NCBI GenBank assembly: GCA_034430695.1
Contig: DAOUEE010000158.1
Location: 1-64,000 of the forward strand
DNA length: 64,000 bases
Origin: Anaerolineales bacterium
GTDB lineage: Bacteria; Chloroflexota; Anaerolineae; Anaerolineales; E44-bin32
Direction: 5' to 3'
Shown: piece by piece, positions 9,077 to 64,000 of the stretch
Layout: each line of letters starts with the position of its first letter
Position numbering within the stretch: position 1 is the first letter of the stretch
The notes under the pieces: model-generated
Database searches by the model: none
What the model was told of the DNA's origin: nothing
What the model saw: the letters and a program-made list of their open reading frames with translations, nothing else
Translations under genes and position numbers: made by a program

Positions 9077-10057
9077 CTACACGCAATCTACTGCGTTGCG
9101 AACGGCTAAGATGTTTGCGTGCGGCGCGATGACGGGAACCACACAACCGGTCCCGAGAACCAGGCCGCGACCGTCCGTCGACGTAAATGCATCCCGCGCC
9201 TCCTCCGCTATCGCAGTCGCATCTTTATACACCATCGATGCCCGGCGCACGCCACCACACACTGCGCCTCGAACGTGGGATTTCCCCGTGCCTAGGTCCG
9301 GCCAGGTCTCTCGATCGTGCCAATTCACGACTTGAACCGGATATTCCTGCGCCAGGTCGAAAATGAGCGCCTCACCATGCAAATGAAGCACGTTGCACCA
9401 CCCACTCGCAGTTCGTTCCAAGATCCGTTGATCGTAAATCCTTCCAAAACGATCGTACGATTCCGAGTCAAAATAGCGATACGATGCGTGTTGAATCGCA
9501 TAGAAAATCCCATCGATGCCCATCTCGAAAACCGCATCAACGAAGGCGACCGTGCTCTCGGTAATGACCTCAAGCCCCGCTTCGACTTTCTTTGGGTCAC
9601 GATGAATATCGGCTAACAAAAGATCGATCCCGGCCAGATTCTTCGCTTGTGCCAGCGGGTTGAATATCGTTTGAATGACGGGAACATCTGCGTCTAGATT
9701 CGTTTTGAGGTGTTCCAGACAACGCAGCTGGTTGCCGAGGAAACCCTTTCGAGGATCGAGCTTTGGCAACTTCGGCCAGTCATCGGGGGATTGAATCACT
9801 CGCTGTGTGTAATCCCGCGTACCTTCCGTCGCGCCTCGCCACTCGTCATTCACCCCCCAATCCTTTAGACAATAAGAGGACGCCGGTGTGACCTTCACGA
9901 AATCAAAGTCGTACGTCTTCTGAAACAGCGCGGCCGCTTTGGCAAGTAGTTCAGGGTCCTGGTCATCAACCGGGAAATGACGCCATAAAGCGACCGGAGG
10001 CCGGTCTGCCACCTCCCCAGCGAATGCTGCTTCCAACCGCTCCCGTTTTGTTGTCAT
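9077..10057 (-). CDS. Uroporphyrinogen-decarboxylase (URO-D) family protein (MtaA/CmuA-like methyltransferase fold)
   Basis: 326 aa. The N-terminus 'RLEAAFAGEVADRPPVALWRHF' and overall composition resemble the URO-D/MtaA family. The assignment is by family only. Confidence 0.6.
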   Translation of the reverse strand: MTTKRERLEAAFAGEVADRPPVALWRHFPVDDQDPELLAKAAALFQKTYDFDFVKVTPASSYCLKDWGVNDEWRGATEGTRDYTQRVIQSPDDWPKLPKLDPRKGFLGNQLRCLEHLKTNLDADVPVIQTIFNPLAQAKNLAGIDLLLADIHRDPKKVEAGLEVITESTVAFVDAVFEMGIDGIFYAIQHASYRYFDSESYDRFGRIYDQRILERTASGWCNVLHLHGEALIFDLAQEYPVQVVNWHDRETWPDLGTGKSHVRGAVCGGVRRASMVYKDATAIAEEARDAFTSTDGRGLVLGTGCVVPVIAPHANILAVRNAVDCV

Positions 10058-10112
10058 TTAACTCCCTCGATCACCACACCTACAGTTCGTCGAAAATAGA
10101 ATATTGACCGGA

Positions 10113-10973
10113 TCACAACAAGGCCGGTATCGCTTCAGGTTGATCCGCTACAATCACCCCGGCGGATTCCAGTGCTTGAATTTTATCGACCGCCAACCCA
10201 GAACCACCCTCCACGATCGCTCCGGCATGCCCCATGCGCTTCCCGGGCGGCGCAGATTGTCCCGCGATGAAGGCTACCACGGGTTTCGTCATGTGATCGC
10301 TGATATATTCCGCGGCGAGTTCCTCATCCTTGCCGCCAATTTCTCCGATCATCACAACCTTATCGGTATGCGGATCGGCCTGGAACATGCCCAACACATC
10401 GATAAAGGACGTCCCGTTGATCGGATCTCCGCCAATTCCGACGCAAGTCGACGTGCCGATGCCTGCCAGCTTCAACGCATAAAGAACTTCGTAGGTTAAC
10501 GTTCCCGATCGAGAGACGAGACCCACCGAGCCAGGCTGTGTGATGTGACCGGGAATGATGCCGGCCTTGCACTCTCCCGGAGTGAGGATTCCCGGACAAT
10601 TCGGGCCAACCAAGCGTACACCCTTCTGGTCGATGTACTGCCGGACTCGCATCATGTCCTGAACTGGAATGCCTTCCGTAATGCAGATACACAACCCTAT
10701 TCCGGCGTCTGCTGCTTCGAGCATCGCGTCGACGGCAAACCTGGCCGGCACGAAAATCACGCTGGTGTCGGCGCCGGTCGTCTCCACCGCGCTTTTCACC
10801 GTGTCGAAAACCGGGATCTTCCCTTCGTAAACCCACTCTCCGCCCTTGCCGGGTGTGACACCCGCCACGATCTTCGATCCGTACTCGATCATCCGTACGG
10901 TATGGAAGAAACCTTCACGGCCCGTGATTCCCTGTACCAGAAGATTCGTGCTCGCATCAATGAGAACGCTCAT
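10113..10973 (-). CDS. sucD: Succinyl-CoA synthetase alpha subunit
   Basis: [45 protein letters not shown] plus the catalytic-His region 'GHAGAIV'. Confidence 0.95.
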
Positions 10974-12115
10974 ACTGACTTCCCCTCCGACGCTAACTGA
11001 ATGGCCTTTTGTGCGGCATCGCCAAGGGAAGTCGCCACAACCATATCCGCATTGCGCAGCAAGTGCCGTCCCTCTTCCTCGTTGGTTCCTACCAGCCGGA
11101 CGACCATGGGAAGATTTCCTTCGACTTCTTTCATCGCCGCGAGTATCCCGCGCGCCACTTCATCGCAGCGCGTGATGCCGCCAAAGATGTTGATCAATAC
11201 CGCATGCACGCTTTCATCCCTCAATATCAGGTTGAACGCCGCAGCGACTTTATCTGCGCCGGCGCCTCCACCGATGTCCAGAAAGTTTGCCGGCTCTCCA
11301 CCGTAAAGCTTGATCACGTCCATCGTCGCCATGGCCAATCCCGCGCCGTTGACCATGCAGCCAATGCTTCCGTCCAATTTCACGTAGGACAGGCTGAATC
11401 GCCGCGCTTCCCGTTCGGTCGGTTCCTCCTCATCCAGATCCCGCATCTCCGCCAATTCAGGGCGGCGAAACAACGCGTTGTCGTCGATGATCATCTTTCC
11501 ATCCAGGGCGAGCAAGCGGTCATCACCGGAGATTACCAGGGGGTTGATTTCTGCCAGGGTCGCGTCGGTGTTAACATACGTGTCGTACAGCCCGCAGACG
11601 ATGGTCCCGAACTGCTGCCAATATTCCCGAGACAATTCAATCGATGCCGCAAGTTGACGCGCCTGGTACTGGCGCATACCCAACAACGGATCGACGTGAA
11701 CCCGCACGATTTTCTCGGGCTTCGTTCGCGCCACTTCTTCGATGTCTACACCGCCTTCAGCAGAGGCGATGATCACCGGACAACGCCGGCCGCGATCGTT
11801 CGTGACGCTGAGATAAATTTCCGACTGAATGTCAGCTGCCTCGTCGACCAGGACTCGCCGTACGGGCAAGCCTTTCACGTGCATCCCCAGCACGTGCGTG
11901 GCGATCTCTTCCGCTTCCTCTGGCGAATCGACCAGGCGGATTCCTCCTGCTTTACCTCGTCCGCCAACCAGTACTTGCGCCTTGATCACCACACGGCTCC
12001 CCAATTCCTGCGCCACAACCTTCGCTTCCTGGGCCGTCATGGCAACCCGGCCACGCGGGATCGGGATGCCGTGTTGAGAAAATAACTGCTTGGATCGGTA
12101 CTCATGAAGCTTCAT
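10970..12115 (-). CDS. sucC: Succinyl-CoA synthetase beta subunit
   Basis: [22 protein letters not shown], an ATP-grasp domain, and overlap with the sucD start. Confidence 0.95.
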
Positions 12116-51702: not shown

Positions 51703-52086
51703 GGCAACACCTCCTCCATCGAATTCTGTATCTCACGAAAGACAGTGAAACATACTGCCTGTTTAATCTACACCACAATGGAAGAACAGTAAATTCCACG
51801 GGCTCAAATTAGATCGGATCCAAACGGTCTAGCCAGGAATGGTCCAGACCATTTTACACAAATCGCGAAGCAGAATATAATGGTGGTTCACTTGCGTCGC
51901 ATTAGAAACCATTGGAATGTGAAGTCGAGCACGTTTCCCGAAATGCCGTCAGGTGTTTTTTCATACCAGGACAGATGTTGAGGTGACTTTGCAAGCCAAA
52001 TGAAAGGTCTACTTTCTCACTTATGATGTACCCTTAGCTTAGATTCAGCGGTAATTCAGGAAGGCAAACGCTTTGGGAGAATCGAC

Positions 52087-53052
52087 TTGACGAATCAAGG
52101 TGCAGATACCAGGCATTTGCTCATCGTTGACGATGAGCATGAAATCTTGAAGGCCCTGACCAATTACCTGAGTAAACTATACGATGCGTATACGGTCGAT
52201 ACGGCAAATAGCGGCGCGGCTGCCCTTGAAAAGATCAAAAAAGGTTCATACGAGCTGATCATAACCGATTACATGATGCCGACCATGAACGGCCTGGAAT
52301 TGGCCAAGGCTGCTCGTGAAATCTCTCCGGATACGAAGGTAGTCCTTATTACAGCATACGGAAATAAGGAGTTGCGTTCGTCCGTCGAAGATTTGAATCT
52401 CGAGGGCTTCATCGATAAACCCTTCAGCATGGCACAGATTCGGGAGATCGTGGAAAAAGCAATTGGCTCGATGAACGGCGACGACCAACCCAACATGCAA
52501 GGTCTTAGCGAACCACTGCGGGACAAATTGAATAAATTGCAGGCCGATTCCGGAGCTTCATGCGTTTTACTGCTGAGCGCAAACGGCTACACGGTCGAAA
52601 CCGCAGGTGTTACGAGCGGTATGGACACTTCAAACATCAGTGCACTCGTGGCAGCGAATTTCGCAGCTTCGTCCGAATTGGCCAGAATCCTGAAGAGTAA
52701 TTCCGTTTTCAAATCCAGTTTCCATGAAGGGCCAGAATACAACATTTACGCTCACGATGTGGATGGCGACTTCCTCCTGGCGGTAATTTTCGGTTCGGAA
52801 ACCAAACCTGGTGCGGTATGGCACTACACCAAACAAACGGCCGTCGAATTGGCGCCATTGATCGCCGATCAGAAGGAAGCGGAAATCGATTCCGACAACC
52901 TGGCGGAAGCGATGAATGCCGAACTCGACAATTTGTTGGATGATGAGATCCTGGTGGACATCGGTACAGGAGAATTAATCACGTTCGAAGACGCCATGAA
53001 TGCCGGACTCGTTCCATCCGAGTTGAAAGAATCAAAGAAGGGCAAAATGTGA
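52087..53052 (+). CDS. Response-regulator receiver fused to Roadblock/LC7 (MglB-like) domain
   Basis: TTG start with GGGAGA RBS. REC 'LLIVDDEHEIL...LIITDYMMPTMNG...VVLITAYG'. The C-terminal 'CVLLLSANGYTVETAGV...FLLAVIFGSE' has a Roadblock pattern. Confidence 0.75.
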   Translation: MTNQGADTRHLLIVDDEHEILKALTNYLSKLYDAYTVDTANSGAAALEKIKKGSYELIITDYMMPTMNGLELAKAAREISPDTKVVLITAYGNKELRSSVEDLNLEGFIDKPFSMAQIREIVEKAIGSMNGDDQPNMQGLSEPLRDKLNKLQADSGASCVLLLSANGYTVETAGVTSGMDTSNISALVAANFAASSELARILKSNSVFKSSFHEGPEYNIYAHDVDGDFLLAVIFGSETKPGAVWHYTKQTAVELAPLIADQKEAEIDSDNLAEAMNAELDNLLDDEILVDIGTGELITFEDAMNAGLVPSELKESKKGKM

Positions 53053-53140: not shown

Positions 53141-53713
53141 ATGTATATTAACCAAAAGCTGGGCGAGTTGCACATCAAAATTGTATACTACGGCCCTGCT
53201 CGCAGTGGAAAAACGACAAACCTGCAATTCATCCACGGACACATCAACCCAAAAGCGCGTGGTGAATTGGTTTCTTTGAAAACGCGCGAAGATCGAACGA
53301 TTTTCTTTGATTTCATGCAATTAGAACTCGGGAAAATCAACGGCCTAAAACCTAAATTCAGCCTGTATACGGTGCCTGGGCAGGTGTATTACGAAGCAAG
53401 CCGAAAACTTGTCCTTCAGGGTTCCGATGGAGTCGTGTTCGTTGCCGACTCGCAGCGCGATCGTTTATCTGATAACATCAGCGATCTCAAGGCGCTGGAA
53501 CAGTACTTGATACAGCTGGGGACGCCGATGGATTCATTCCCGTGCGTCATTCAATTCAACAAGCAGGATCTACCCGACGTGATCGAGCCCGATGATCTAA
53601 AGACGCAGATGAATATCAACGGTGTTCCTTGTATGGGCTCGTCCGCGATCAAGGGCCATGGCGTATTCGATACTTTGAAAACCATCATAAATCTTGTGGT
53701 TAAACAACTATAA
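53141..53713 (+). CDS. mglA: MglA-like Ras-superfamily small GTPase
   Basis: P-loop GPARSGKTT, intrinsic Arg finger 'EDRTIFFDF', switch-II 'TVPGQVYY', G4 'NKQD'. It is collinear with M. xanthus MglA over its full length (190 aa). Confidence 0.85.
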   Translation: MYINQKLGELHIKIVYYGPARSGKTTNLQFIHGHINPKARGELVSLKTREDRTIFFDFMQLELGKINGLKPKFSLYTVPGQVYYEASRKLVLQGSDGVVFVADSQRDRLSDNISDLKALEQYLIQLGTPMDSFPCVIQFNKQDLPDVIEPDDLKTQMNINGVPCMGSSAIKGHGVFDTLKTIINLVVKQL

Positions 53714-53739: not shown

Positions 53740-54450
53740 ATGGCAGTTCAGGGGAATCTTATTGACATCAGTCTATCCAGTCTGATTAGCATTAATTGCA
53801 ACGAGATGAATCAAGCACGCCTGCTTGTGAAACATCGGGATCAAGAAGGAACCTTGTTTTTCGATGAAGGGGACATCGTCCATATGACCCTGGGTTCACA
53901 AGAAGGAGAAGACGTGATCTTCGAACTTCTTACCTGGGAAGACGGAACGTTCGAATTAACGAGGGACATACGCGCACCAAAACGCAGCGTCGAGACCAAC
54001 TGGTCCCATTTGCTGTTGGAGGGACTGCGGCGCATCGACGAGCAAACCCTCATGAAAAGCGGTGACGATGACGATGCCAATCGCGAAAAACAGAAATCGG
54101 AACATGAAGCTGCCGAACGCATGGCCAAAGATTTCACGCGGATCAATGGCATCGAAGGTGCACTTGTTACTTCGAAATATGGTGATGTACTAGGTTTCGA
54201 GGCAATGAAAAATCCCAAAGCGACGGCGGCTCTCGCAGCTTTCGCAGGACGACGGGCAGAAGAATTGGGCATCCTGTTGAACGCCGGGGCGCTTCAGCAA
54301 ATCACCATGTCTGGCGATGGCTGGAGAATGATCGTCTTTCCGTCTGAAAAACACTTGACGGCATTATCCATGGATCCCAAAATTTCAGTGAGTGCTACAG
54401 CCAATGCATTACAAGCCACGAAGAGAAGGCATCGAAAGGAAAAAGTTTGA
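53740..54450 (+). CDS. DUF4388 + Roadblock/LC7 two-domain protein
   Basis: The N-terminal 'GNLIDISLSSLISI...GTLFFDEGDIVHMTLG...LTWEDGTFEL' is DUF4388-like. The C-terminal 'INGIEGALVTSKYGDVLGF...WRMIVFPSEKHLTALSMD' is Roadblock. Confidence 0.7.
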   Translation: MAVQGNLIDISLSSLISINCNEMNQARLLVKHRDQEGTLFFDEGDIVHMTLGSQEGEDVIFELLTWEDGTFELTRDIRAPKRSVETNWSHLLLEGLRRIDEQTLMKSGDDDDANREKQKSEHEAAERMAKDFTRINGIEGALVTSKYGDVLGFEAMKNPKATAALAAFAGRRAEELGILLNAGALQQITMSGDGWRMIVFPSEKHLTALSMDPKISVSATANALQATKRRHRKEKV

Positions 54451-54542: not shown

Positions 54543-55553
54543 ATGTTATTACCAAAGGGAAAACCGATCTACGAAAATCTGAACACATCATTTACGAGTT
54601 TCGGCAAGTTGCTGCTGGATCTCAAGTCCAATGGCTTCACCGGATACGTCTACATCAGTTTCTGGGACTACGAAGCCGCTTTGTTCATGGACAACGGCAA
54701 CATCATCAACGCCATCGAAGAAACCGGCGGAAACAGGAAAACCAGCCACGATGCCGTCGGTAGCATCACTGCAAAAGTCAATCAGAAGGATGGTTCCATC
54801 AGCGTGTACAGCCTCTCACCAAAGAAGGTAACCATGCTCGCCAGTACAGTGAGAAGCGAAGTGCGCTACAAGGACCTCAACACTGATTTCACCAGCCTCG
54901 AAAAACTTATTGCAAAACTGAAGAGCGAGGGGCACACCGGTTACATCGAGGTCAGGATGACGGGTGGTGATGGTATAGCCATTGTCTTCCTCGAGAACGG
55001 TGAAGTCGTCGAGAGCATCCTCTCGATGCAGGATGAGGCGATATCCGGTGATGCGATCTTGCCTCACATTATCGAAAACGCTTCGACATTGGGCGCAGAT
55101 TTCAACGTGTACAACGCCGCCATTGAAGCCTCATTCGCCGAAAGTGAGGAAATCGAAGCCGGCTTCGACCTGCCGCGATTGCTGGCCGTGTGGGGCGAAA
55201 CGATAGGTGCGATCGAAAGAATGGCGGACAGCACAATCGGTAGAGGACAATTCCTCGAAGCCTTCAAATATGTCATGATCGAGAAGGCCAATGAATACCC
55301 GTTTCTGGATCCTTTTGCCGGCTTGTTTCAATACAAGGACGGCAGAATCCAATACAGCGGAGATGCGAAGAACCTGAGCAAAGGTCTCAGTGATTGTCTG
55401 AGTACGACAATCGAGCAGCTGGCCTCCCAACCGGCAGCCGCCGATCTGGAACACAGAATCCAGACCGAAATGAAGGCGGTCAAGGACAAATACGACGACA
55501 CGATCAAGCGCTTGGGCTTGGGGCCATTCATCCTTGGTTTCACGGCCGATTAA
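54543..55553 (+). CDS. Protein with two tandem DUF4388-like repeats and helical C-terminal region
   Basis: Internal repeat 'LNTSFTSFGKLLLDLKSNGFTGYVYISF...NGNIINAIE' versus 'LNTDFTSLEKLIAKLKSEGHTGYIEVRM...NGEVVESIL'. Confidence 0.55.
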   Translation: MLLPKGKPIYENLNTSFTSFGKLLLDLKSNGFTGYVYISFWDYEAALFMDNGNIINAIEETGGNRKTSHDAVGSITAKVNQKDGSISVYSLSPKKVTMLASTVRSEVRYKDLNTDFTSLEKLIAKLKSEGHTGYIEVRMTGGDGIAIVFLENGEVVESILSMQDEAISGDAILPHIIENASTLGADFNVYNAAIEASFAESEEIEAGFDLPRLLAVWGETIGAIERMADSTIGRGQFLEAFKYVMIEKANEYPFLDPFAGLFQYKDGRIQYSGDAKNLSKGLSDCLSTTIEQLASQPAAADLEHRIQTEMKAVKDKYDDTIKRLGLGPFILGFTAD

Positions 55554-55562
55554 GAGCAAATC

Positions 55563-56000
55563 ATGGACCAAGTACTCGCAGAAATCAACGCGTTGGACGG
55601 TGTACTCGGATCGTTCATCTGCGATAATCGCGGCAACGTGATCGTGAATGCTGTTCCCGCAAATCTGAACATCGCTGTGCTGCGGGGAATCAGCCGTCAA
55701 GTGACGCAAGCAATCGCTGCCAGGATACAAAACGGCATCCAAGAAATTGACCTAACCTATGAAGGAATCCGGGTGCTGATTCGCGCCCTCAACCAGGCCG
55801 CACTCGTGGTAATCTGCGAATCGAATGTGGACATCGCCCTTCTTCGACTGACATTGAATGTCAGCTTATCCAAGCCGGAATTCGGATCACAGCTTACCAA
55901 CATAGCACCCAAGGAACAGGTTATCCGGATCGTGCAGGAAGTCGATGTCGATGAAATATCCTGGCGCCTATATCGATCCATTAATGAGGGAGTCATGTGA
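55563..56000 (+). CDS. Roadblock/LC7 (MglB-like) domain protein
   Basis: 'INALDGVLGSFICDNRGNVIV...ALVVICESNVDIALLRL' is the classic Roadblock pattern. 145 aa. Confidence 0.7.
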   Translation: MDQVLAEINALDGVLGSFICDNRGNVIVNAVPANLNIAVLRGISRQVTQAIAARIQNGIQEIDLTYEGIRVLIRALNQAALVVICESNVDIALLRLTLNVSLSKPEFGSQLTNIAPKEQVIRIVQEVDVDEISWRLYRSINEGVM

Positions 56001-56788
56001 TGGCAGAAGCTTTACGGGGTGATCTACACCAATTATCACTCCCGAACATTATTCAGTTGTTAAAATCGGGGGGCCAGACGGGAAAAATTGATTTGACGGA
56101 CGGAAACAACACCGGCGAGATTTTCCTCGAGAACGGCAACATCGTCCACGCGATTGCCGGCGTTCTAATTGGGGAAGAAGCCTTCTATTCCCTTTTATCA
56201 TGGTTGCACGGAGATTTCAATTTCGTCAGTGGTATTGAAGCCCCAGAGGAAACGATTTCAACCTCCACAGAGCTGCTCCTCGCCGAGGGAGAAAAACGCA
56301 TCCAGGGATGGTCAGAAATCAAAAACGTAATACCTTCGATGCAGGCGATTTTCAATCTTGCCGAAGGAACAACGGGAGCGATCAACCTCGATCCGAACGA
56401 ATGGAAAGTCCTTGCGCAGGTAAATGGCGTTCGCACGATCAACGATATCGCCGCATCTCTCGGATGGGATGAATTCGAAGCCGCAAGCGTCCTGGCCGCT
56501 CTCGTAAAGACGGGGCTGCTTGAAATAGTTGAAGAATCCAAGTCACCTCCCGTCACGGCCATCGACAACGAGTTTTTCGATCGGCTCAATGATGAATTTA
56601 TTGAGGTAATCGGTCCTGTTGGGCCGGTGATCATCGACGAAAAGATCGCTTCGTTGAATGAAACCAGAGAGTCTTTCCCGCGCAACAAAGTCGCTGACCT
56701 GGTGGAACAAGTAAGTACGGAAATTGAAGACACGGATCAACGCATGCATTTCCAACAGATCATGTTGGATCTGTTGCGAGGAATCTAG
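55997..56788 (+). CDS. DUF4388 domain protein
   Basis: 'LRGDLHQLSLPNIIQLLKSGGQTGKIDLTDGNNTGEIFLENGNIVHAIAG...EEAFYSLLSWLHGDFNF' is a near-consensus DUF4388. ATGTGATG overlap with the upstream gene. Confidence 0.75.
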   Translation: MMAEALRGDLHQLSLPNIIQLLKSGGQTGKIDLTDGNNTGEIFLENGNIVHAIAGVLIGEEAFYSLLSWLHGDFNFVSGIEAPEETISTSTELLLAEGEKRIQGWSEIKNVIPSMQAIFNLAEGTTGAINLDPNEWKVLAQVNGVRTINDIAASLGWDEFEAASVLAALVKTGLLEIVEESKSPPVTAIDNEFFDRLNDEFIEVIGPVGPVIIDEKIASLNETRESFPRNKVADLVEQVSTEIEDTDQRMHFQQIMLDLLRGI

Positions 56789-56872: not shown

Positions 56873-57655
56873 ATGAGATTGACCATCGGTAGAAAATTAG
56901 GACTTGGCTTCGGAATTCCATTGGTCCTGTTGGCTTTGATCGGGATTGCTGTTTTCATCGGATTCAACACGCTTACCAACGCAGCGCGAGATTCAATCGC
57001 AGCTCAGCAAACGATTGAATTCATGGAAAGAGGCATGAAGCTCCTGCTGACGGAACGTATCTTGTTGAGCCATCAATTCGCAACCGGTGAGGAAACAACG
57101 GCGGCTGAATCTCGAAACGACTACATGCAGGAATGGGCGCTCGTCGTAGAAAATACAAGCACTCGATATTCGGATCTAGTGATGGAAATCCAACGAGCGG
57201 TCACGATATATCACCAATATCTAGATAGGGCACAATCAACCTACGAGACCAATCCAAATGACGCCCCCGACGCGTTACGCGAACTGGATGAAGCCGATAT
57301 ATTCTTCATTCAAATTGTACGACCTACCATGGACGATTTACTTTCCACTGCCGTTACAGAAAAATCACAACTCGTCGATGTCCTTGAAAATCAAATTATC
57401 GGCATTACGAGAATCGCGCTCCTCGTCGTCGTCATTGGAATCATTATTTCTGTATTCAGCGCGCTCACAATCCGGCGTGGCCTTACGAACGCGGCCTTGT
57501 ATCTGAGCTCTGCAGCCGAGAGCATCAGCCGCGGCGATTTGGACACTCCCATTATCGCTGAGACTGGTGACGAGATGGAAGATCTTGCCCGCTCGATTGA
57601 GCGCATGAGGGTCAGTCTGAAAGCTGCGATCGAACGATTGCGGAGAAGAACATAA
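56873..57655 (+). CDS. Membrane sensor: TM - four-helix-bundle extracytoplasmic domain - TM - HAMP, no output domain
   Basis: TM1 'LGFGIPLVLLALIGIAVFIGF', TM2 'ITRIALLVVVIGIIISVFSALTI'. The HAMP-like 'RRGLTNAALYLSSAAESISRGDLDTPIIAETGDEMEDLARSIERMRVSL' is followed by the stop. Confidence 0.65.
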   Translation: MRLTIGRKLGLGFGIPLVLLALIGIAVFIGFNTLTNAARDSIAAQQTIEFMERGMKLLLTERILLSHQFATGEETTAAESRNDYMQEWALVVENTSTRYSDLVMEIQRAVTIYHQYLDRAQSTYETNPNDAPDALRELDEADIFFIQIVRPTMDDLLSTAVTEKSQLVDVLENQIIGITRIALLVVVIGIIISVFSALTIRRGLTNAALYLSSAAESISRGDLDTPIIAETGDEMEDLARSIERMRVSLKAAIERLRRRT

Positions 57656-57835: not shown

Positions 57836-58327
57836 ATGCCAGATAAAGTGGTAATACCCCCAGCTCTGATGACGAAGATCATCAAGATCATGTCGCAATT
57901 GCTGGAGAAAACTCAAGCATGCTGTGTCTTGCTTGCGGACATCAGCGGTCAGCTGATCTGCCAACAAGGGTTTACCAAGACCTTTGATCCGGTCATCTTG
58001 TCTGCTTTAACCGCCAGCAACATGGCTGCAACGGCGGAGATCGCCCGCCAGATCGGTGAGGAAAATCCATTCAAACTCATGTTCCACGAAGGGGACGATC
58101 AGAATATCTACCTTTCGAACGTTGCCGGCAGTTTCCTGCTCGTTGTCCTGTTCAGCACGAAAGTCCAGATCGGTCTTGTACGCCTATTCACCGGGCAGGC
58201 CGTGAAGAACCTCATTCCACTTGCCGCGGAGTTCGAACGCGTACAAAAGGAACAGGGACGCATTGTCGATGATGAATTTGGTCAAGCATTGACCACAGAG
58301 ATTGAGAGTCTGTTTGGCGATAATTAA
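57836..58327 (+). CDS. Roadblock/LC7 domain protein
   Basis: 'ACCVLLADISGQLICQQG...FLLVVLFSTKVQIGLV' has a Roadblock pattern. Confidence 0.65.
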   Translation: MPDKVVIPPALMTKIIKIMSQLLEKTQACCVLLADISGQLICQQGFTKTFDPVILSALTASNMAATAEIARQIGEENPFKLMFHEGDDQNIYLSNVAGSFLLVVLFSTKVQIGLVRLFTGQAVKNLIPLAAEFERVQKEQGRIVDDEFGQALTTEIESLFGDN

Positions 58328-58360: not shown

Positions 58361-58753
58361 ATGAATTATCAACAAGTTGATTTGGCCACGTACCAACCGG
58401 TAACACTCGATGAACTTCTGCTCACCTTGCACGAGCAAGGTCAATTCGAGACTGCCGTCCTCGCGAGCGGTGAGGGATTGCCTATCGCGACCGTACCTGC
58501 GAACTTCGATACGGATAAAGCGGCAGCCATGATTGCGATGCTTAAAAGAGTGAGCAAGGAGGCACGTGATCAGTTTCCACTTGCAGAAATTGATGAATTT
58601 TCCATTCTTGATTCCAATCGGATGCGTTTGGTTTGCCGATATTTGAAAGCCGGCGGCGAGGAAATGATTCTTGCGGTCATTGCGCCGCCAGACCACAGCT
58701 ACCGCCGTATGACGAACCAGGCCATTAAACAAATCGTTGAATTCCTTTCTTGA
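58361..58753 (+). CDS. Roadblock/LC7 domain protein
   Basis: 'TAVLASGEGLPIATVPAN...MILAVIAPPD' has a Roadblock pattern. 130 aa. Confidence 0.65.
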   Translation: MNYQQVDLATYQPVTLDELLLTLHEQGQFETAVLASGEGLPIATVPANFDTDKAAAMIAMLKRVSKEARDQFPLAEIDEFSILDSNRMRLVCRYLKAGGEEMILAVIAPPDHSYRRMTNQAIKQIVEFLS

Positions 58754-58780: not shown

Positions 58781-60010
58781 GTGAAATGTATTCAGGTGAT
58801 GAACGGAACAGGCGGAAGTATCTCAGAAGTTGGTATCAAATCTCTCTCGACGATCGACCGATCGTGTGAAAGGAAAGAGTTCGAAGAATTCTTCCATGGT
58901 CAATTCGATCAATATTTCGCGCGTAGCGAGACGCGACAACAAGCCCTGCATTACGTCCAATCACTGCTCTTAGATTCAGATCCCAAATCCAACGGTAAGA
59001 AACCCCCTGCCTATAGGAAATTCTCGAAGTCCGCCCAGAGGTTGTTTTTCGGCGCGCAATGGGACGACGAAGCCGTACACCACCGTCTCCAGGATTTCAT
59101 CGTTGCAGAATTGGGCCATGAAAAAGGCGTATGCCTCATTGGTGTGACGTATTTCTCTAAAAAGGGAGAAAAAACGGTCGGAGTACAGTCGCAATTCAAT
59201 CGCAAACTCAAGAAGGACCAGAATTGTCAGGTTTGCCTGTTCCTGGGGTATGCCTCCCCGAAGGGTTGTACATTTCTCGACCGTCGTCTCTACCTTCCCG
59301 TGCAATGGACGGAAGACCAAAAGCGCAGAGCCGAAGCGAAAATCCCCGAGGACATCGAATATCGAAGCAAGTCCGATCTTGCCTTGGACATGCTTCAATC
59401 GGTCCATGCCATCGGAGCACCCATTCATTGGGTGGTTGGCGGCGAACCATTCTGCAGCGATACGAATTTACGCAACGTCATACAAGCGGCTGGCATGAAT
59501 TACATTCTCTCCGGCCGGGATACGGATTCGAGTTTCCGAAACTTGAATCACAAGCAAACAACGTCTGATCCGAACAACCAGGAAGATGAAGCCTGTGATT
59601 CTTCTATCTTCAAGATCGTAACCAATTGGAACGAGAAGAAATGGAAGCGCGTAATCGATCGTTCGAACGGAGATGAAATCTGTGTCTTCGATTGGGCTTC
59701 GGAGCGTGTTCTCGAGTTCCAGAACGAAACCGATTCCCAGGAAGTCTGGCTGTTGGCTCGCCGGCCGGTGAGTCAGCGATGCGAAACCGCGTATTTCATC
59801 TCCAACGCTTCACAGGACGCAACTCTTTCCAACCTCGCCGAGAAAATCAGCGGCTTGGGGATACTCGATCAGATGGTATCAGAAGCATGCACGAATTTTA
59901 TGATGGACGTGTACGGAGTGCGCCACTGGAACAGCTGGCATCGTCATATCACTCTATCGATGATCGCCCATGCCTGGTGGGTATACAAAGGGAAAAGGAC
60001 GTTACGATGA
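58781..60010 (+). mobile_element. IS701-family DDE transposase homolog with apparently substituted catalytic residues (possible domesticated/decayed transposase)
   Basis: Family blocks recalled from memory: 'F..F...F.R.E.R..A..Y..SLL', 'KKGEKTVGVQSQF...NCQVCLFLGYAS', 'LDRRLYLPVQWTED', 'WVVGGEPF', 'VRHWNSWHRHITLSMIAHA'. At the positions expected for D-D the sequence reads IGVTYF (not DETGF) and GGE (not GDE). It lies 27 nt after the upstream gene and has an ATGA overlap with the downstream gene. Confidence 0.65.
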
Positions 60011-60447
60011 ACCATCCTCCATTTTCGATAGAAGGATGTGATCAGACGCTGCAGGAAGAGCAGACCAATACGTGCGGACAAGGGAAAACCATCCTGTTTG
60101 TAGAAGACAATGACTTGATGCGAGAAATCGGCGCGCAGATATTGGAGGATTTGGGGTATCGAGTCATCTGCGCCGCGAACGGTCAAGAAGCGTTTGACAT
60201 CTTCAATGAGACAGAGCATATCGATTTGATATTCACCGACGTAGTGATGCCTGAGATCAGCGGTGCAGCTTTGCTCCAGAAAATTCGGGCAGCCGGTTCG
60301 CTCGTTAAAGCCGTTGCCGTGACGGGCCACGTCCTGGCGGAGGACCTGGATCGATTACGGGAAGTGGGTGTCACATCGATTATTCGAAAACCCTACGACG
60401 TCGACATCCTGGCTGATGCAGTCCGTGAAGCGTTGGAAAATGGGTAA
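60007..60447 (+). CDS. Stand-alone CheY-like response-regulator receiver
   Basis: 'TILFVEDNDLMREIG...DLIFTDVVMPEISG...AVAVTGHV' with Asp and Lys at the expected receiver positions. Confidence 0.8.
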   Translation: MNHPPFSIEGCDQTLQEEQTNTCGQGKTILFVEDNDLMREIGAQILEDLGYRVICAANGQEAFDIFNETEHIDLIFTDVVMPEISGAALLQKIRAAGSLVKAVAVTGHVLAEDLDRLREVGVTSIIRKPYDVDILADAVREALENG

Positions 60448-60474: not shown

Positions 60475-63400
60475 ATGGCGACTGAGAAGAGCAAGAAGGC
60501 ACATTTATCGCAAGCGGACGACACTCCAACTGCCCGTCCGACACTCGCCTTTCTTACCGCGACCATGGAAGATCACTTCAGCCTGGCCATGTGGACCGCG
60601 ATCGTCGAAGCCGCCCACGAGCGAAATGCAAACGTGATCAGTATCGCGGGTGGGAATTTGAATGACGCAGACGACGATGTCAGCGCAATGAGGTCAATCT
60701 ACCGGGCTGCGAATGAAGACTTTATCGATGCCATCATCATCTACGGATCGAGATTAGGAACCTACGTATCCCCAAAGACGTTTCGTGATTTTTGCGGTCA
60801 ATTCACATCCAAACCGTCTGTCAGCATCGGCCAGCAAGTCGAGGGGATCCCCGCTGTTCTTTCCGATAACTACGTCGGAATGCACCTTTTGGTCCGGCAT
60901 CTCATTCACGACCACGCATATCAACGTATTGCTTTCGTTCGGGGACCAGAAGGACAGATCGAGGCAGAAACACGATTCCAAGCTTATAAAGACGCGCTCA
61001 TTGAATCCGGCCTTGATATCGACCCCGGTTTGATTTCAGAACCTGGTATATGGGAGTCTATATCCGGCGAGGAGGCCGTTCGATCGTTCGTCGACGAGCG
61101 GGATTTAGCTCTCGATGCAATCGTCTGCGCAAACGATACCATGGCCCTCGCAACGATGTGGGCTTTGAAAAACCGAGGCCTGGCTATTCCGGACGATGTT
61201 GCCGTCGTGGGATTCGACAGCCAGGCCATTGCGAAAGCGGCTACACCGCCCCTCTCTACGGTCCGGCAACAATTGAAAGAACAATGTCGGCATGCCGTCG
61301 ACATCGTGTTAACCCAATTGGCGGGCGGCGACGTCCCCGATCGGATCGAAATTCCCACAAAACTCTGCATCCGTCAATCGTGTGGCTGTACCTCGTCCGC
61401 GGTTGGACGCGCGATCACGAAAACAAATCTCGATAACGGCGGCAGGAAAATTTCGGACGCAAAACGGGAAGACATTCTTTCGGAGATCGCGCACATCGTT
61501 GATACGACAGTCGCAGGGTCGGACGCCAAGTGGAGTAATAGATTATTCGATACATTTCTCGCAGATATTGAAAATAATCTCTCGAATTCATTCCTGCGAG
61601 AACTCAAATCTTGTATCGAAGACACGATTTCCCTCGAGACTGAAATTAACGAATGGCAAAGAGTAGTATCGTTGCTTCGCCATTTTACGCGGAGTAAGTA
61701 TGCCGACGAGGCGACCACGGAGCGAATCGAGGAGCTGAGTAATCAAGCACGTGTGCTGATCGGCGATAAAGTCCAACAAATCGAAACGCATCAATCGCTG
61801 ATCTACGATCAACAATACGCCAACCTGCGAGACACGACCAGGGCATTATCGACGGCTCTCGAACTCGACGATTTGCTCGACACCCTCCATCGCAGTTTGC
61901 CCCGCTTTGGAATACGAAGTTGCTACCTATCTCTGTACGAAAAAAACCTTCCATCTATTGAGAGCGAAACAAAAATCGGTTCGTTTCCTTTAAAGATGAT
62001 TCTCGCCTTCGACGACAAAGGCATATTGCCGCTCGAGTCCGAAGCAGCAGACATTTCGACAAACATACTTCCACGGCGAAAAATTTCGACCATTTCCGGC
62101 AAATGGTCTTTCGTAGTCAAAGCACTTGAGCGTGCAGATGATCCACTGGGGATCGTTCTCTTTGAAGTCTATCCTCCGGACGGAAGATCCTGCGACATGC
62201 TGCAAGAACAAATCAGCAGCTCACTCGCCTACGCATTGCTTCTCCAGGAACGACAGCAAGAGCATGAAGTACTCCAACAAGCCTACACGGAAGCTGAGAA
62301 GCAGGCCAGGGAAAAGGAGATCGAGCTGGAGTTTGAGATCGTAGACCGTGAGCAGGCCCAACAAGCACTTCTGCGAGAGCAGCACCTGTTACGCATACTC
62401 ATGGATAACTCCCCGGACGCTATCTATTTCAAGGACAAGGAAAGTCGCTTTATTAAGGTCAACCAGTCGTTTGCCAAAATACACGGCAAAGAAACCTCAG
62501 ACGATCTTCTGGGATTATCCGATTTCGATCTGTTTACCGAGGAACACGCGAGCGAAGCATTCGAAGACGAGATGCGCGTACTCAAGACAGGCGAACCGAT
62601 TGTCGGCAAAGTAGAGAAGGAGACTTGGCCAGACGGCCACGAAACCTGGGTCTCGACGACCAAATTGCCCATGCGGGATGATAAGGGGAACATAACGGGG
62701 ACCTTCGGTATTTCCCGAGATATAACCGAATCCAAACTAGTAGAGCAGGAACTTCGTCGCCATGCCGCCCATCTCGAGGCGATCAACACCATCATAAGCT
62801 CTACTTCGACAGCCGTCGATTTTCAAGATCTGCTGAAAATTTCCCTAGATTTATCTCTCTACGCGGTTGAAATGAATATGGGATTCATCTGGCTTCCGCC
62901 TCACACCGTATCTCGAAAATTGCTGCCGCCAGAGAACGAATTCCCTCACTACGATTTCGATCCCGAAAGTGCCGAACTACCGGAGATTCTCGTTGTCGAT
63001 GATTGGCAAAAAGTGCCGCAAGAAGATTTGCGTTTTCGTTTCTACGAGACATATCTCAAACCGCATGGCGTTCGGGCCTCGATCACAGTTCCGATTAAAG
63101 CCGAGGAAGGGAATCGACTCGGCGGGTTATGTATCGCTTCTCCCCAGGCATTCAAATGGACCACAGAAGAGTCTACACTTTTAGAAGCGGTCGGCTACCA
63201 GATTGGAATTGCAGCCGAGCGGCTGCGGCTGGTCGATCAGATTCGCGAACAGATGCAGCAGGTGCAGCAAATCACGGATACCGTCCCGGATGGTGTTCTC
63301 CTGCTTGATTCGAGCCATCGCGTCATTCTCGTAAATCCGGCAGGAACTCGAGATTTGCATTCGCTGGCGAAAGCTTCTGTTGGGGACGAGATTTCCCATC

Positions 63401-63999
63401 TCGGTGGTTGTTCCATTGCCGACATTCTACAAACCGACACCGATGTCCCCTGGCATGAAGTTCTTGCAAACAATCGGATTTTCGAGATCGTTGCACGACC
63501 CATCGACACCTACGGGTCTTCTGAGAGTTGGGTGATCGTGATCCGGGATGTGACCCAAGAACGGGAGACGCAGCGCCAGGTTCAGCAACAGGAACGGCTT
63601 GCAGCGGTCGGTCAACTCGCCGGCGGAATCGCCCATGACTTCAATAATCTGCTCACGACCATCATGCTCTATGCTCAAATGCCATTACGCAAACAACAGC
63701 TTCCCGAGGAGCTGAAAAAGCCCCTCGAGACGATTCTCAGCGAGTCACGCAAGGCAGCGAGTTTGGTTCAGCAGATCCTCGATTTCAGCCGGCACGCCCC
63801 GATCGAACGACACCCCATAGATCTCGGACCGTTCGTGAAAGAAGCCGTGCGAGTCCTGCAACGGACGATCCCCGAAAATATCTCCTTGTATATCGAGATC
63901 GACCCGAATGAGTACCTCGTCGAAGCCGATCCGACCCGCATTCAACAGGTGTTGATGAACCTGGTTGTGAATGCACGTGACGCCATGCCGGAAGGTGGA
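60475..63999 (+). CDS. Large multi-domain sensor histidine kinase, 3'-truncated by window end: PBP1 (LacI-type sugar-binding fold, no HTH) - GAF/PAS - PAS - GAF - PAS - HisKA - HATPase(start)
   Basis: My own frame-1 translation from ATG 60475 has no stop through nt 63999. It is absent from the ORF track, presumably because no stop falls in the window. PBP1 block 'AIVCANDTMALATMWALKNRGLAIPDDVAVVGFD'. PAS 'LRILMDNSPDAIYFKDKESRFIKVNQSFAKIHG'. HisKA 'ERLAAVGQLAGGIAHDFNNLLTTI'. N-box 'VLMNLVVNARDAMPEGG'. Confidence 0.75.
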   Translation, partial: MATEKSKKAHLSQADDTPTARPTLAFLTATMEDHFSLAMWTAIVEAAHERNANVISIAGGNLNDADDDVSAMRSIYRAANEDFIDAIIIYGSRLGTYVSPKTFRDFCGQFTSKPSVSIGQQVEGIPAVLSDNYVGMHLLVRHLIHDHAYQRIAFVRGPEGQIEAETRFQAYKDALIESGLDIDPGLISEPGIWESISGEEAVRSFVDERDLALDAIVCANDTMALATMWALKNRGLAIPDDVAVVGFDSQAIAKAATPPLSTVRQQLKEQCRHAVDIVLTQLAGGDVPDRIEIPTKLCIRQSCGCTSSAVGRAITKTNLDNGGRKISDAKREDILSEIAHIVDTTVAGSDAKWSNRLFDTFLADIENNLSNSFLRELKSCIEDTISLETEINEWQRVVSLLRHFTRSKYADEATTERIEELSNQARVLIGDKVQQIETHQSLIYDQQYANLRDTTRALSTALELDDLLDTLHRSLPRFGIRSCYLSLYEKNLPSIESETKIGSFPLKMILAFDDKGILPLESEAADISTNILPRRKISTISGKWSFVVKALERADDPLGIVLFEVYPPDGRSCDMLQEQISSSLAYALLLQERQQEHEVLQQAYTEAEKQAREKEIELEFEIVDREQAQQALLREQHLLRILMDNSPDAIYFKDKESRFIKVNQSFAKIHGKETSDDLLGLSDFDLFTEEHASEAFEDEMRVLKTGEPIVGKVEKETWPDGHETWVSTTKLPMRDDKGNITGTFGISRDITESKLVEQELRRHAAHLEAINTIISSTSTAVDFQDLLKISLDLSLYAVEMNMGFIWLPPHTVSRKLLPPENEFPHYDFDPESAELPEILVVDDWQKVPQEDLRFRFYETYLKPHGVRASITVPIKAEEGNRLGGLCIASPQAFKWTTEESTLLEAVGYQIGIAAERLRLVDQIREQMQQVQQITDTVPDGVLLLDSSHRVILVNPAGTRDLHSLAKASVGDEISHLGGCSIADILQTDTDVPWHEVLANNRIFEIVARPIDTYGSSESWVIVIRDVTQERETQRQVQQQERLAAVGQLAGGIAHDFNNLLTTIMLYAQMPLRKQQLPEELKKPLETILSESRKAASLVQQILDFSRHAPIERHPIDLGPFVKEAVRVLQRTIPENISLYIEIDPNEYLVEADPTRIQQVLMNLVVNARDAMPEGG

Positions 64000-64000
64000 G

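Follow-up and report, generated by a model that had tools for sequence, protein, structure and literature searches.

In this study, we analysed a 64,000-nucleotide stretch of contig DAOUEE010000158.1 (assembly GCA_034430695.1) from an Anaerolineales bacterium, hereafter the window, and focused on a gene on its forward strand that encodes a receiver (REC) domain fused to an MglB-like Roadblock/LC7 domain. The gene is the first of a cluster in which the next gene encodes an MglA small GTPase. Our reading, which we hold to be evenly balanced between right and wrong, is that the fusion serves as a phosphorylation-controlled MglB-type GTPase-activating protein (GAP) for the adjacent MglA, within a polarity module of PATAN and multiple Roadblock proteins. 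The gene and its parts are as follows (aa, amino acids).

52087–53052, + strand: REC-MglB fusion gene, 321 aa (open reading frame, Pfam, phmmer, AlphaFold/Foldseek)
52111–52464, + strand: REC domain, aa 9–126 (Pfam, CheY alignment, family conservation, (beta-alpha)5 fold in the model)
52465–52497, + strand: inter-domain linker, aa 127–137 (low confidence, unconserved)
52498–52881, + strand: MglB-like Roadblock/LC7 domain, aa 138–265 (Pfam, phmmer, family alignment, AlphaFold, Foldseek)
52900–52947, + strand: motif 1, acidic helix LAEAMNAELDNLLDDE, aa 272–287 (phmmer alignment, model helix aa 270–284, family pattern)
52975–53016, + strand: motif 2, LITFEDAMNAGLVP, aa 297–310 (conserved short C-terminal motif)

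A receiver fused to an MglB-like Roadblock domain

The initial annotation of this DNA had called a receiver-Roadblock fusion with an intact phospho-acceptor Asp context, and both halves of that call held. The Pfam search returned Response_reg (PF00072) at aa 12–122 (E=3.4e-26, 92 bits against a cut-off of 30.2) and Robl_LC7 at aa 148–235 (E=3.7e-7, 30.2 bits against a gathering cut-off of 23), so the C-terminal half does score as Roadblock, at a level far from chance. The open reading frame starts with TTG, with GGGAG 9 nt upstream of the start, and an identical gene call is present on L060, a JGI metagenome contig carrying the same cluster. Comparison with three orthologues gave a ratio of nonsynonymous to synonymous substitution rates (dN/dS) of 0.06–0.07, indicating strong purifying selection. 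An artefactual fusion caused by mis-assembly or a frameshift was ruled out by this ratio and by the occurrence of the same architecture in 50 species genomes and 291 protein clusters.

We then aligned the receiver with E. coli CheY. The results showed that D15/D16, D61, T89 and K111 align with D12/D13, D57, T87 and K109 of CheY, the codon of the phospho-acceptor D61 lying at nt 52267–52269. In an alignment of 121 homologues, D61 and K111 were invariant, and D15/D16 and T89 were at least 90% conserved. The AlphaFold model contains five strand-helix units at aa 9–126 with a predicted local distance difference test score (pLDDT) above 90. The acceptor Asp, the Thr, the Lys and the acidic pocket are thus all present, and a pseudo-receiver was ruled out on sequence by this full residue set and its conservation in the family.

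The linker that follows was modelled with pLDDT below 50 at aa 128–136 and contained no conserved columns in the family alignment. Such a flexible linker, with no predicted inter-domain interface, would suit a constitutively active MglB domain, in which the receiver is a phosphate sink or a localisation or dimerisation module and does not gate GAP function. The kinase encoded nearby is itself a hybrid with its own receiver and is accompanied by an extra stand-alone receiver, and extra receivers in hybrid-kinase layouts often act as sinks. However, the complete acceptor site is conserved over the 121 diverged homologues, and purifying selection acts on the whole gene. In addition, a rough neighbour-joining tree without support values placed the REC-fused domains largely apart from stand-alone MglBs, so the fusion appears to have been retained through diversification; a single ancient fusion that later diversified would fit the tree. 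We consider a constitutive MglB domain improbable.

To place the C-terminal half, we searched aa 134–321 alone against all PDB sequences with phmmer. The results showed that MglB chains were the sole significant matches (Myxococcus xanthus MglB, E=3e-14; Thermus MglB, approximately 1e-5), and that no chain named MglC was matched at E≤1. The alignment to Myxococcus MglB extended past the Roadblock domain into the C-terminus. An AlphaFold2 model, built from the 121-sequence alignment, had a mean pLDDT of 83 and a predicted template modelling score (pTM) of 0.49. It runs from the (beta-alpha)5 receiver at aa 9–126 through the low-confidence linker at aa 128–136 to the Roadblock domain at aa 138–265, which is followed by a helix at aa 270–284 and then by a small hairpin and two short helices at aa 293–316. 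When the model was compared with the PDB using Foldseek, the top 21 matches were all MglB chains (E=3e-12 to 1e-10); against Myxococcus MglB, the target-normalised template modelling score was 0.85–0.88, with a root-mean-square deviation of about 1.7 Å over about 120 residues and 30–32% identity.

The most conserved part of the family is the alpha2 helix region, where helix alpha2 itself, ALVAANFAASSELARIL (aa 186–202), and the FKSSFHEG segment (aa 208–215) are nearly invariant. A64 and G68 of Myxococcus MglB are alpha2 residues that contact MglA, and Thermus MglB has Ala at the equivalent positions. The A64 position is kept in the fusion. A generic Roadblock domain was ruled out by the phmmer search, in which only MglB chains were significant, and by the Foldseek search, in which the top 21 were all MglB. 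The fused domain also fits neither MglC nor RomR: MglC is less than 9% identical to MglB, and the fused domain is 30–32% identical to it, while RomR lacks the folded Roadblock domain that here follows the receiver after an 11-residue linker. The sequence and model comparisons together indicate that the C-terminal domain is specifically MglB-like and not merely Roadblock. The fusion had no match to the NCBIfam MglB model NF052242 among the best 25 families listed; this model scores the stand-alone MglB paralogue of the cluster at 59 bits against a cut-off of 200, and neither protein is an equivalog by it.

The adjacent MglA and the C-terminal motifs

The gene that starts 88 nt downstream of the fusion gene was then compared with known MglA proteins.

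53141–53713, + strand: Group 1 MglA small GTPase, 190 aa (phmmer, motifs)

Its product matched M. xanthus MglA (6hjh) with E=4.4e-56 in a phmmer search, and it contains a GPARSGKT P-loop, an intrinsic Arg finger in R52-T53, T77VPGQ81 (G3) and N140KQD (G4). Group 1 MglA proteins are recognised by the P-loop, an Arg beside the G2 Thr, TVPGQ in G3 and [NT]KxD in G4 (Wuichet and Sogaard-Andersen 2014), and judged by these motifs the gene encodes a bona fide Group 1 MglA. The fusion also shows the genomic coupling used in that 2014 study, for which a GTPase of the MglA family has to lie no more than four genes away. A second copy of mglA or of the REC-MglB gene was not found in the window. The fusion gene had been described as the first of the MglA cluster, which agrees with its surroundings: its 5' neighbour, an aldo-keto reductase gene, is divergent and 384 bp away, and from the fusion gene to the end of the window every gene lies on the + strand, and no intergenic gap exceeds 180 bp.

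The 384-bp upstream region was searched for regulatory elements. An Rfam search for a riboswitch or leader RNA gave no match at E≤1, and the number of promoter-like sites in the region was not above the shuffled expectation. One such site is listed here.

51853–51881, + strand: promoter-like TTTACA-17-TATAAT (11/12), approximately 205 nt 5' of the start codon (consensus match)

Two motifs follow the Roadblock domain of the fusion. Within motif 1, for which the family pattern is [DE]x[DE][FL]Dx[LM][FL], the phmmer alignment paired LAEAMNAELDNLL with FAEMSDDDIDNLF of 6izw_B, which is the C-terminal (Ct) helix of M. xanthus MglB, residues 147–157. That helix docks in an MglA pocket remote from the active site and allosterically promotes nucleotide exchange (PMC6785124), and an acidic MglA-docking Ct-helix is a trait of a subset of MglBs (PMC6785124). 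By sequence, motif 1 is equivalent to the MglB Ct-helix, and docking on MglA is predicted.

Motif 2 has the family pattern L[IM]xFE[ED]A[VIM]xxGL[VI]P (LxxFEEAxxxGLxP) and is separated from motif 1 by acidic linkers of variable length. In the loci, it was confined to the C-terminus of REC-MglB proteins, and it was absent from both Myxococcus MglB and the stand-alone MglB of the cluster. Several homologues carry the two motifs in reversed order, motif 2 standing ahead of motif 1, which fits independent linear motifs. Among genes with at least 3 kb of downstream DNA, mglA was present within 5 kb in 22 of 22 genes with a strict motif 2, compared with 10 of 31 without it (Fisher p=2.5e-7), an association that is confounded by phylogeny. 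The only Pfam similarity of motif 2 was a weak Plectin-repeat match (E=0.025). Motif 2, with its apparent tracking of MglA linkage in these sequences, is newly noted in this analysis.

These two motifs also bear on a different role, in which the fusion would be a positive regulator or effector of MglA, acting by nucleotide exchange or capture of MglA-GDP through the Ct-helix-like motif, or by tethering MglA to a second partner through motif 2. The allosteric effect of the Myxococcus helix on nucleotide exchange and the specificity of the extra motif 2 for MglA-linked members speak for it, as does the RomR-RomX pair, which a recent paper (PMC13408092) re-interprets as an MglA-GTP effector. Nothing, however, separates an effector from a GAP in our data. 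The MglB fold itself reportedly speeds up hydrolysis while contributing no catalytic residues, so GAP activity is to be expected of an MglB-like dimer bound to MglA-GTP. A positive regulator of this kind therefore seems to us very improbable.

Family conservation and the proposed phosphorylation switch

A search of 5.8 billion proteins with the fusion returned 291 clusters (90% identity) at E≤1e-5. Of these 291 clusters, the best 120 almost all combined REC with Robl_LC7 in 257–401 aa, and the named members came from metagenome-assembled genomes (MAGs) of Anaerolineae or Ardenticatenaceae, with the JGI label "CheY-like / Roadblock/LC7/MglB". In contigs sampled at one genome per species, we found 50 full-length relatives, all in Chloroflexota (Anaerolineales, Caldilineaceae, Ardenticatenales and Promineifilaceae), the nearest being from an Anaerolineales MAG with 92% identity. 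The culturable Caldilinea aerophila also has a homologue (L032). When the MglB-like domain alone was searched with HMMER over 1.84 billion representatives, 987 matches were obtained at E≤1e-3 and 183 at E≤1e-10; a receiver stood at the N-terminus in 93 of the best 150. Some relatives are longer, at 405–507 aa (P0165, P0208, P0226, P0242, P0259, P0227, P0235 and P0247); in part of them the receiver and the MglB domain are set apart by about 120 additional residues, and others have a C-terminal extension of 150–220 residues.

Gene context was counted for 59 family genes with at least 1.5 kb of downstream DNA. In 32 of them, mglA lay within 5 kb downstream on the same strand: directly adjacent in 12, as in the window, after a gap of about 400–750 nt in 14, and further away in 6. 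The gap has room for one gene, which in most cases is MglB-like. Three independent long contigs shared the order REC-MglB, MglB-like, MglA, small Roadblock-like, PATAN-Roadblock, 157-aa, 430-aa and GATase_6. The last three genes, of which the 157-aa product matches RdxA_C and the 430-aa product has no Pfam match, follow the Mgl/PATAN module at L056 13803–16476, L057 14374–17039 and L059 12141–14687 in Caldilineaceae and Anaerolineae, and this trio is missing from the cluster in the window.

The genes downstream of mglA in the window are as follows.

53740–54450, + strand: PATAN (DUF4388) plus weak Roadblock protein, 236 aa (Pfam; orthologues elsewhere score both PatA_N and Robl_LC7)
54543–55553, + strand: 336-aa DUF2226/PATAN-like protein (DUF2226 E=1.8e-6; DUF4388 below cut-off; resembles the PATAN genes of the cluster)
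55563–56000, + strand: 145-aa protein, possibly Roadblock-like (weak: 7yh1_D Roadblock/LC7, E=0.18, nearly full length; BLASTP to MglB163, E=0.1)
55997–56788, + strand: PATAN plus DUF8082 protein, 263 aa (Pfam)
56873–57655, + strand: membrane HAMP protein without an output domain, 260 aa (HAMP E=3.2e-9; weak TarH)
57836–58327, + strand: stand-alone MglB paralogue, 163 aa, with C-terminal TTEIESLF motif (phmmer E=1.3e-18 to M. xanthus MglB, full length)
58361–58753, + strand: second small Roadblock protein, 130 aa (Pfam Robl_LC7 E=6.3e-7)
58781–60010, + strand: IS701-family transposase-like gene (Pfam/NCBIfam, synteny)
60007–60447, + strand: stand-alone receiver, 146 aa (Pfam E=5e-22; exact gene call on L060/L061)
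60475–64000, + strand: soluble hybrid histidine kinase, 5' part, cut by the window end (translation)

At 37% identity (E=1e-27), the stand-alone MglB is the closest relative of the fused MglB domain within the window, and vice versa. Since a separate MglB is encoded in the cluster, the fusion counts as a second paralogue of MglB, and the GAP role need not be its own. An alternative to be weighed is an adaptor or scaffold similar to MglC that depends on phosphorylation: instead of acting on MglA itself, the fused Roadblock domain would pair with or bind Roadblock partners from the cluster (the candidates being the 130-aa and 145-aa proteins, the PATAN-Roadblock protein and the stand-alone MglB) and recruit them to, or release them from, a site in the cell, and the stand-alone MglB would be the GAP. 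The cluster may encode five Roadblock-type domains, if the similarity of the 145-aa protein is real; many loci are ordered REC-MglB, MglB, MglA; tandem REC-MglB pairs without mglA suggest Roadblock-Roadblock partnerships; and in Myxococcus the Roadblock paralogue MglC bridges RomR and MglB. Against an adaptor, the fused domain resembles MglB and not MglC, with only MglB chains matched at E≤1, and the MglA-directed Ct-helix motif is kept. Some loci, moreover, have no stand-alone MglB near mglA; one of them, L014, contains two genes each for REC-MglB and MglA but lacks a stand-alone MglB within 20 kb, so that a fusion can plausibly serve as the sole MglB. On this balance, we regard the adaptor as rather unlikely, if a serious candidate.

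Phosphorylation control of an MglB-like regulator, which the initial annotation had proposed, is the natural reading of a real fusion with an intact receiver, an MglB-like domain and an adjacent Group 1 MglA. The domains and the neighbouring MglA in that proposal were found as described, and the control itself is what we infer from them. As a response regulator with an MglB-type Roadblock output, the fusion would dimerise through its Roadblock domain, as MglB does, and the dimer would bind the GTP-loaded form of the adjacent Group 1 MglA. GTP hydrolysis would then be stimulated by repositioning the Arg finger R52 and Q81 of MglA itself, with the acidic C-terminal helix docking on MglA in the manner of the Myxococcus MglB Ct-helix. 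A histidine kinase would phosphorylate D61 and thereby switch activity, localisation or partner choice on or off, and the two-component input would in this way set the level of MglA-GTP directly. MglA would then work with the PATAN/Roadblock proteins of the cluster to direct polarity or motility, with type IV pili as the probable output; in Synechocystis, PATAN domains bind PilB1 and PilC, which are motor proteins of the pilus.

A stronger form of this mechanism is that REC-MglB is a self-contained phosphorylation-gated GAP or guanine nucleotide exchange factor for MglA, which would place the Myxococcus relay from kinase through FrzX/RomR to MglB in one polypeptide, with motif 1 tethering MglA and motif 2 a second partner. 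We offer this only tentatively, as a possibility on the doubtful side.

Several observations weigh against a phosphorylation-controlled GAP. The support for every family member comes from sequence or models. The AlphaFold model gave no confident REC-Roadblock interface or domain arrangement (pTM 0.49, disordered linker), and where Myxococcus MglB has G68, the fusion and the stand-alone paralogue both have Glu. The stand-alone MglB also scores better against Myxococcus MglB (E=1.3e-18) and could be the actual GAP. At the level of gene context, 27 of the 59 family genes (about 45%) are not near mglA, many of them being tandem REC-MglB pairs, and no motility or chemosensory genes were found elsewhere in the window among the ten large open reading frames scanned. 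On the input side, no cognate kinase is conserved across the family, and Pfam detected no Hpt domain in the local hybrid kinase, nor was one found among the cluster genes scanned.

The tandem pairs consist of shorter REC-MglB proteins (about 260 and 290 aa) and were seen in L035–L037, L039, L040, L043, L044 and L047, at about position 10000, with no mglA within 10 kb. In each pair, one member keeps a motif 1 of the DFxxMFG type and its partner has neither C-terminal motif. Each such pair may form an obligate heterodimer whose target GTPase is a distant one.

Candidate partners, known systems and significance

The stand-alone receiver and the hybrid kinase near the end of the window had been put forward as plausible partners of the fusion. 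The kinase is indeed a hybrid: a full-length copy on L061, a contig with an identical 146-aa receiver, has 1417 aa in the order Peripla_BP-PAS-GAF-HisKA-HATPase_c-REC. The partnership did not stand equally well, being weakly supported, by local adjacency. An IS701-like gene separates the Mgl genes from the receiver and kinase, and the block of IS701-like gene, receiver and kinase adjoins the Mgl genes solely in the four closest relatives of the window. In other lineages, different kinases lie nearby, one Caldilineaceae locus having a hybrid kinase 33 bp upstream. On L061, the gene after the hybrid kinase (10064–11737) also starts with a LacI-type periplasmic-binding-like domain, which suggests two paralogous soluble sensor proteins with an unusual N-terminal sensor module.

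We also examined the history of this right-hand block. The IS701-like gene keeps its place, flanked by the 130-aa Roadblock gene and the receiver gene, in four Anaerolineales species with 70–80% aa identity (also at L001 16703–17923, L003 16728–17957 and L004 16725–17954). It has a dN/dS of about 0.1 and no flanking terminal inverted repeats, and its stop codon overlaps with the start of the receiver gene. A recent insertion sequence that split the Mgl genes from the receiver and kinase was ruled out by the four-species synteny, the purifying selection and the absence of inverted repeats; the gene has the look of an ancient transposase that may have been domesticated. When the window was compared with L001, synonymous divergence was 0.44–0.64 for four genes on the left (those encoding REC-MglB, MglA, the stand-alone MglB and the 130-aa Roadblock protein), an intermediate 0.93 for the HAMP gene, and 1.5–1.7 for the IS701-like gene and the receiver. 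The closest relative of the right-hand block (IS701-like gene and receiver) is L004. The jump in divergence at 58753/58781 points to a different history of this block and suggests a recombination breakpoint at the transposase-like gene.

Other members of the cluster gave further clues to the module. The 336-aa protein (54543–55553) matches the archaeal family DUF2226 and apparently contains two PATAN-like repeats. Two hydrophobic segments, read off the sequence, and a weak TarH-like extracytoplasmic region were present in the HAMP protein (56873–57655), which has no kinase, methyl-accepting chemotaxis protein or cyclase output and may feed the PATAN/Roadblock proteins through protein contact. 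A relative of the 130-aa Roadblock protein comes after mglA in most related loci, and PATAN genes near Group 1 and Group 5 mglA have been described (Wuichet and Sogaard-Andersen 2014).

The fusion was compared with systems already on record. With MglB of M. xanthus and T. thermophilus (PDB 6IZW, 6HJM and 3T12) it shares the Roadblock/LC7 fold, 30–32% identity, alpha2, the acidic C-terminal helix and the adjacent Group 1 mglA, but it adds an N-terminal receiver and the C-terminal motif 2, has a separate MglB in the same cluster and has a GAP role that is predicted. In Myxococcus, phosphorylated FrzX, a single-domain receiver, is recruited by MglB, and FrzX and MglB together gate MglA polarity. 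The fusion resembles a covalent version of this receiver-MglB pairing, whereas FrzX stands as its own protein and receives its input from the CheA-type kinase FrzE, and no Che-type kinase is near the fusion.

The initial annotation had instead likened the fusion to "RomR plus MglB" as separate proteins, an analogy that is loose because RomR has no Roadblock domain and binds MglC through its C-terminal region and RomX through its receiver. What the fusion has in common with RomR (receiver, Pro-rich region and Glu-rich C-terminus, working with RomX and MglC) is that each is a receiver protein of an MglA polarity module with an acidic C-terminal helix; the resemblance of the RomR helix to the MglB Ct-helix is given in a figure legend (PMC6785124, S7 Fig legend).

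Three further systems combine similar parts. Archaeal REC-NitrOD3 (Galperin et al. 2018) likewise joins a receiver to an output related to Roadblock/LC7, but it is thaumarchaeal, its Roadblock relation is by HHpred alone and no MglA link is reported. The Streptomyces conservon (CvnA kinase, CvnB Roadblock, CvnC and the MglA-like GTPase CvnD) brings two-component-type input, Roadblock and an MglA-family GTPase together in one locus; it has a Group 2 MglA, a membrane kinase and no response regulator, in contrast to the Group 1 MglA and the Roadblock-fused receiver found here. Cyanobacterial PatA-type PATAN-REC regulators recall the PATAN proteins in the same module as the fusion, and PATAN genes are known to neighbour mglA and mglB; here, however, PATAN occurs by itself or joined to Roadblock, and it is MglB that carries the receiver.

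This architecture was already on record. Wuichet and Sogaard-Andersen (2014) found five MglB BLAST hits that carried Response_reg at the N-terminus and cited Pfam for Response_reg plus Robl_LC7 fusions. The fusion is mentioned there solely in the methods, with no family description, context analysis or function, and the five proteins were not identified in the supplementary tables of that paper. Beyond this 2014 mention, our search of the accessible literature turned up no REC-Roadblock or REC-MglB protein that had been named or characterised. Since the architecture is already in Pfam, in JGI annotation and in this one paper, and is common in filamentous Chloroflexota, the surprise for a specialist is modest. 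The value of the finding is a hypothesis that is easy to test, namely that phosphorylation directly controls a regulator of a bacterial small GTPase, together with the newly noted second C-terminal motif.

How two-component or chemosensory input reaches the MglA/MglB switch is still debated in Myxococcus (FrzX, FrzZ, RomR). A receiver-MglB fusion beside its MglA is a simple two- or three-protein system in which one could measure directly how phosphorylation controls the GAP of a bacterial small GTPase, and it would extend MglA biology into filamentous Chloroflexota. If the self-contained switch were true, the fusion would be natural "Rosetta stone" evidence for receivers acting directly on MglB, and a minimal two-component-to-small-GTPase switch would set polarity or pilus activity in filamentous Chloroflexota.

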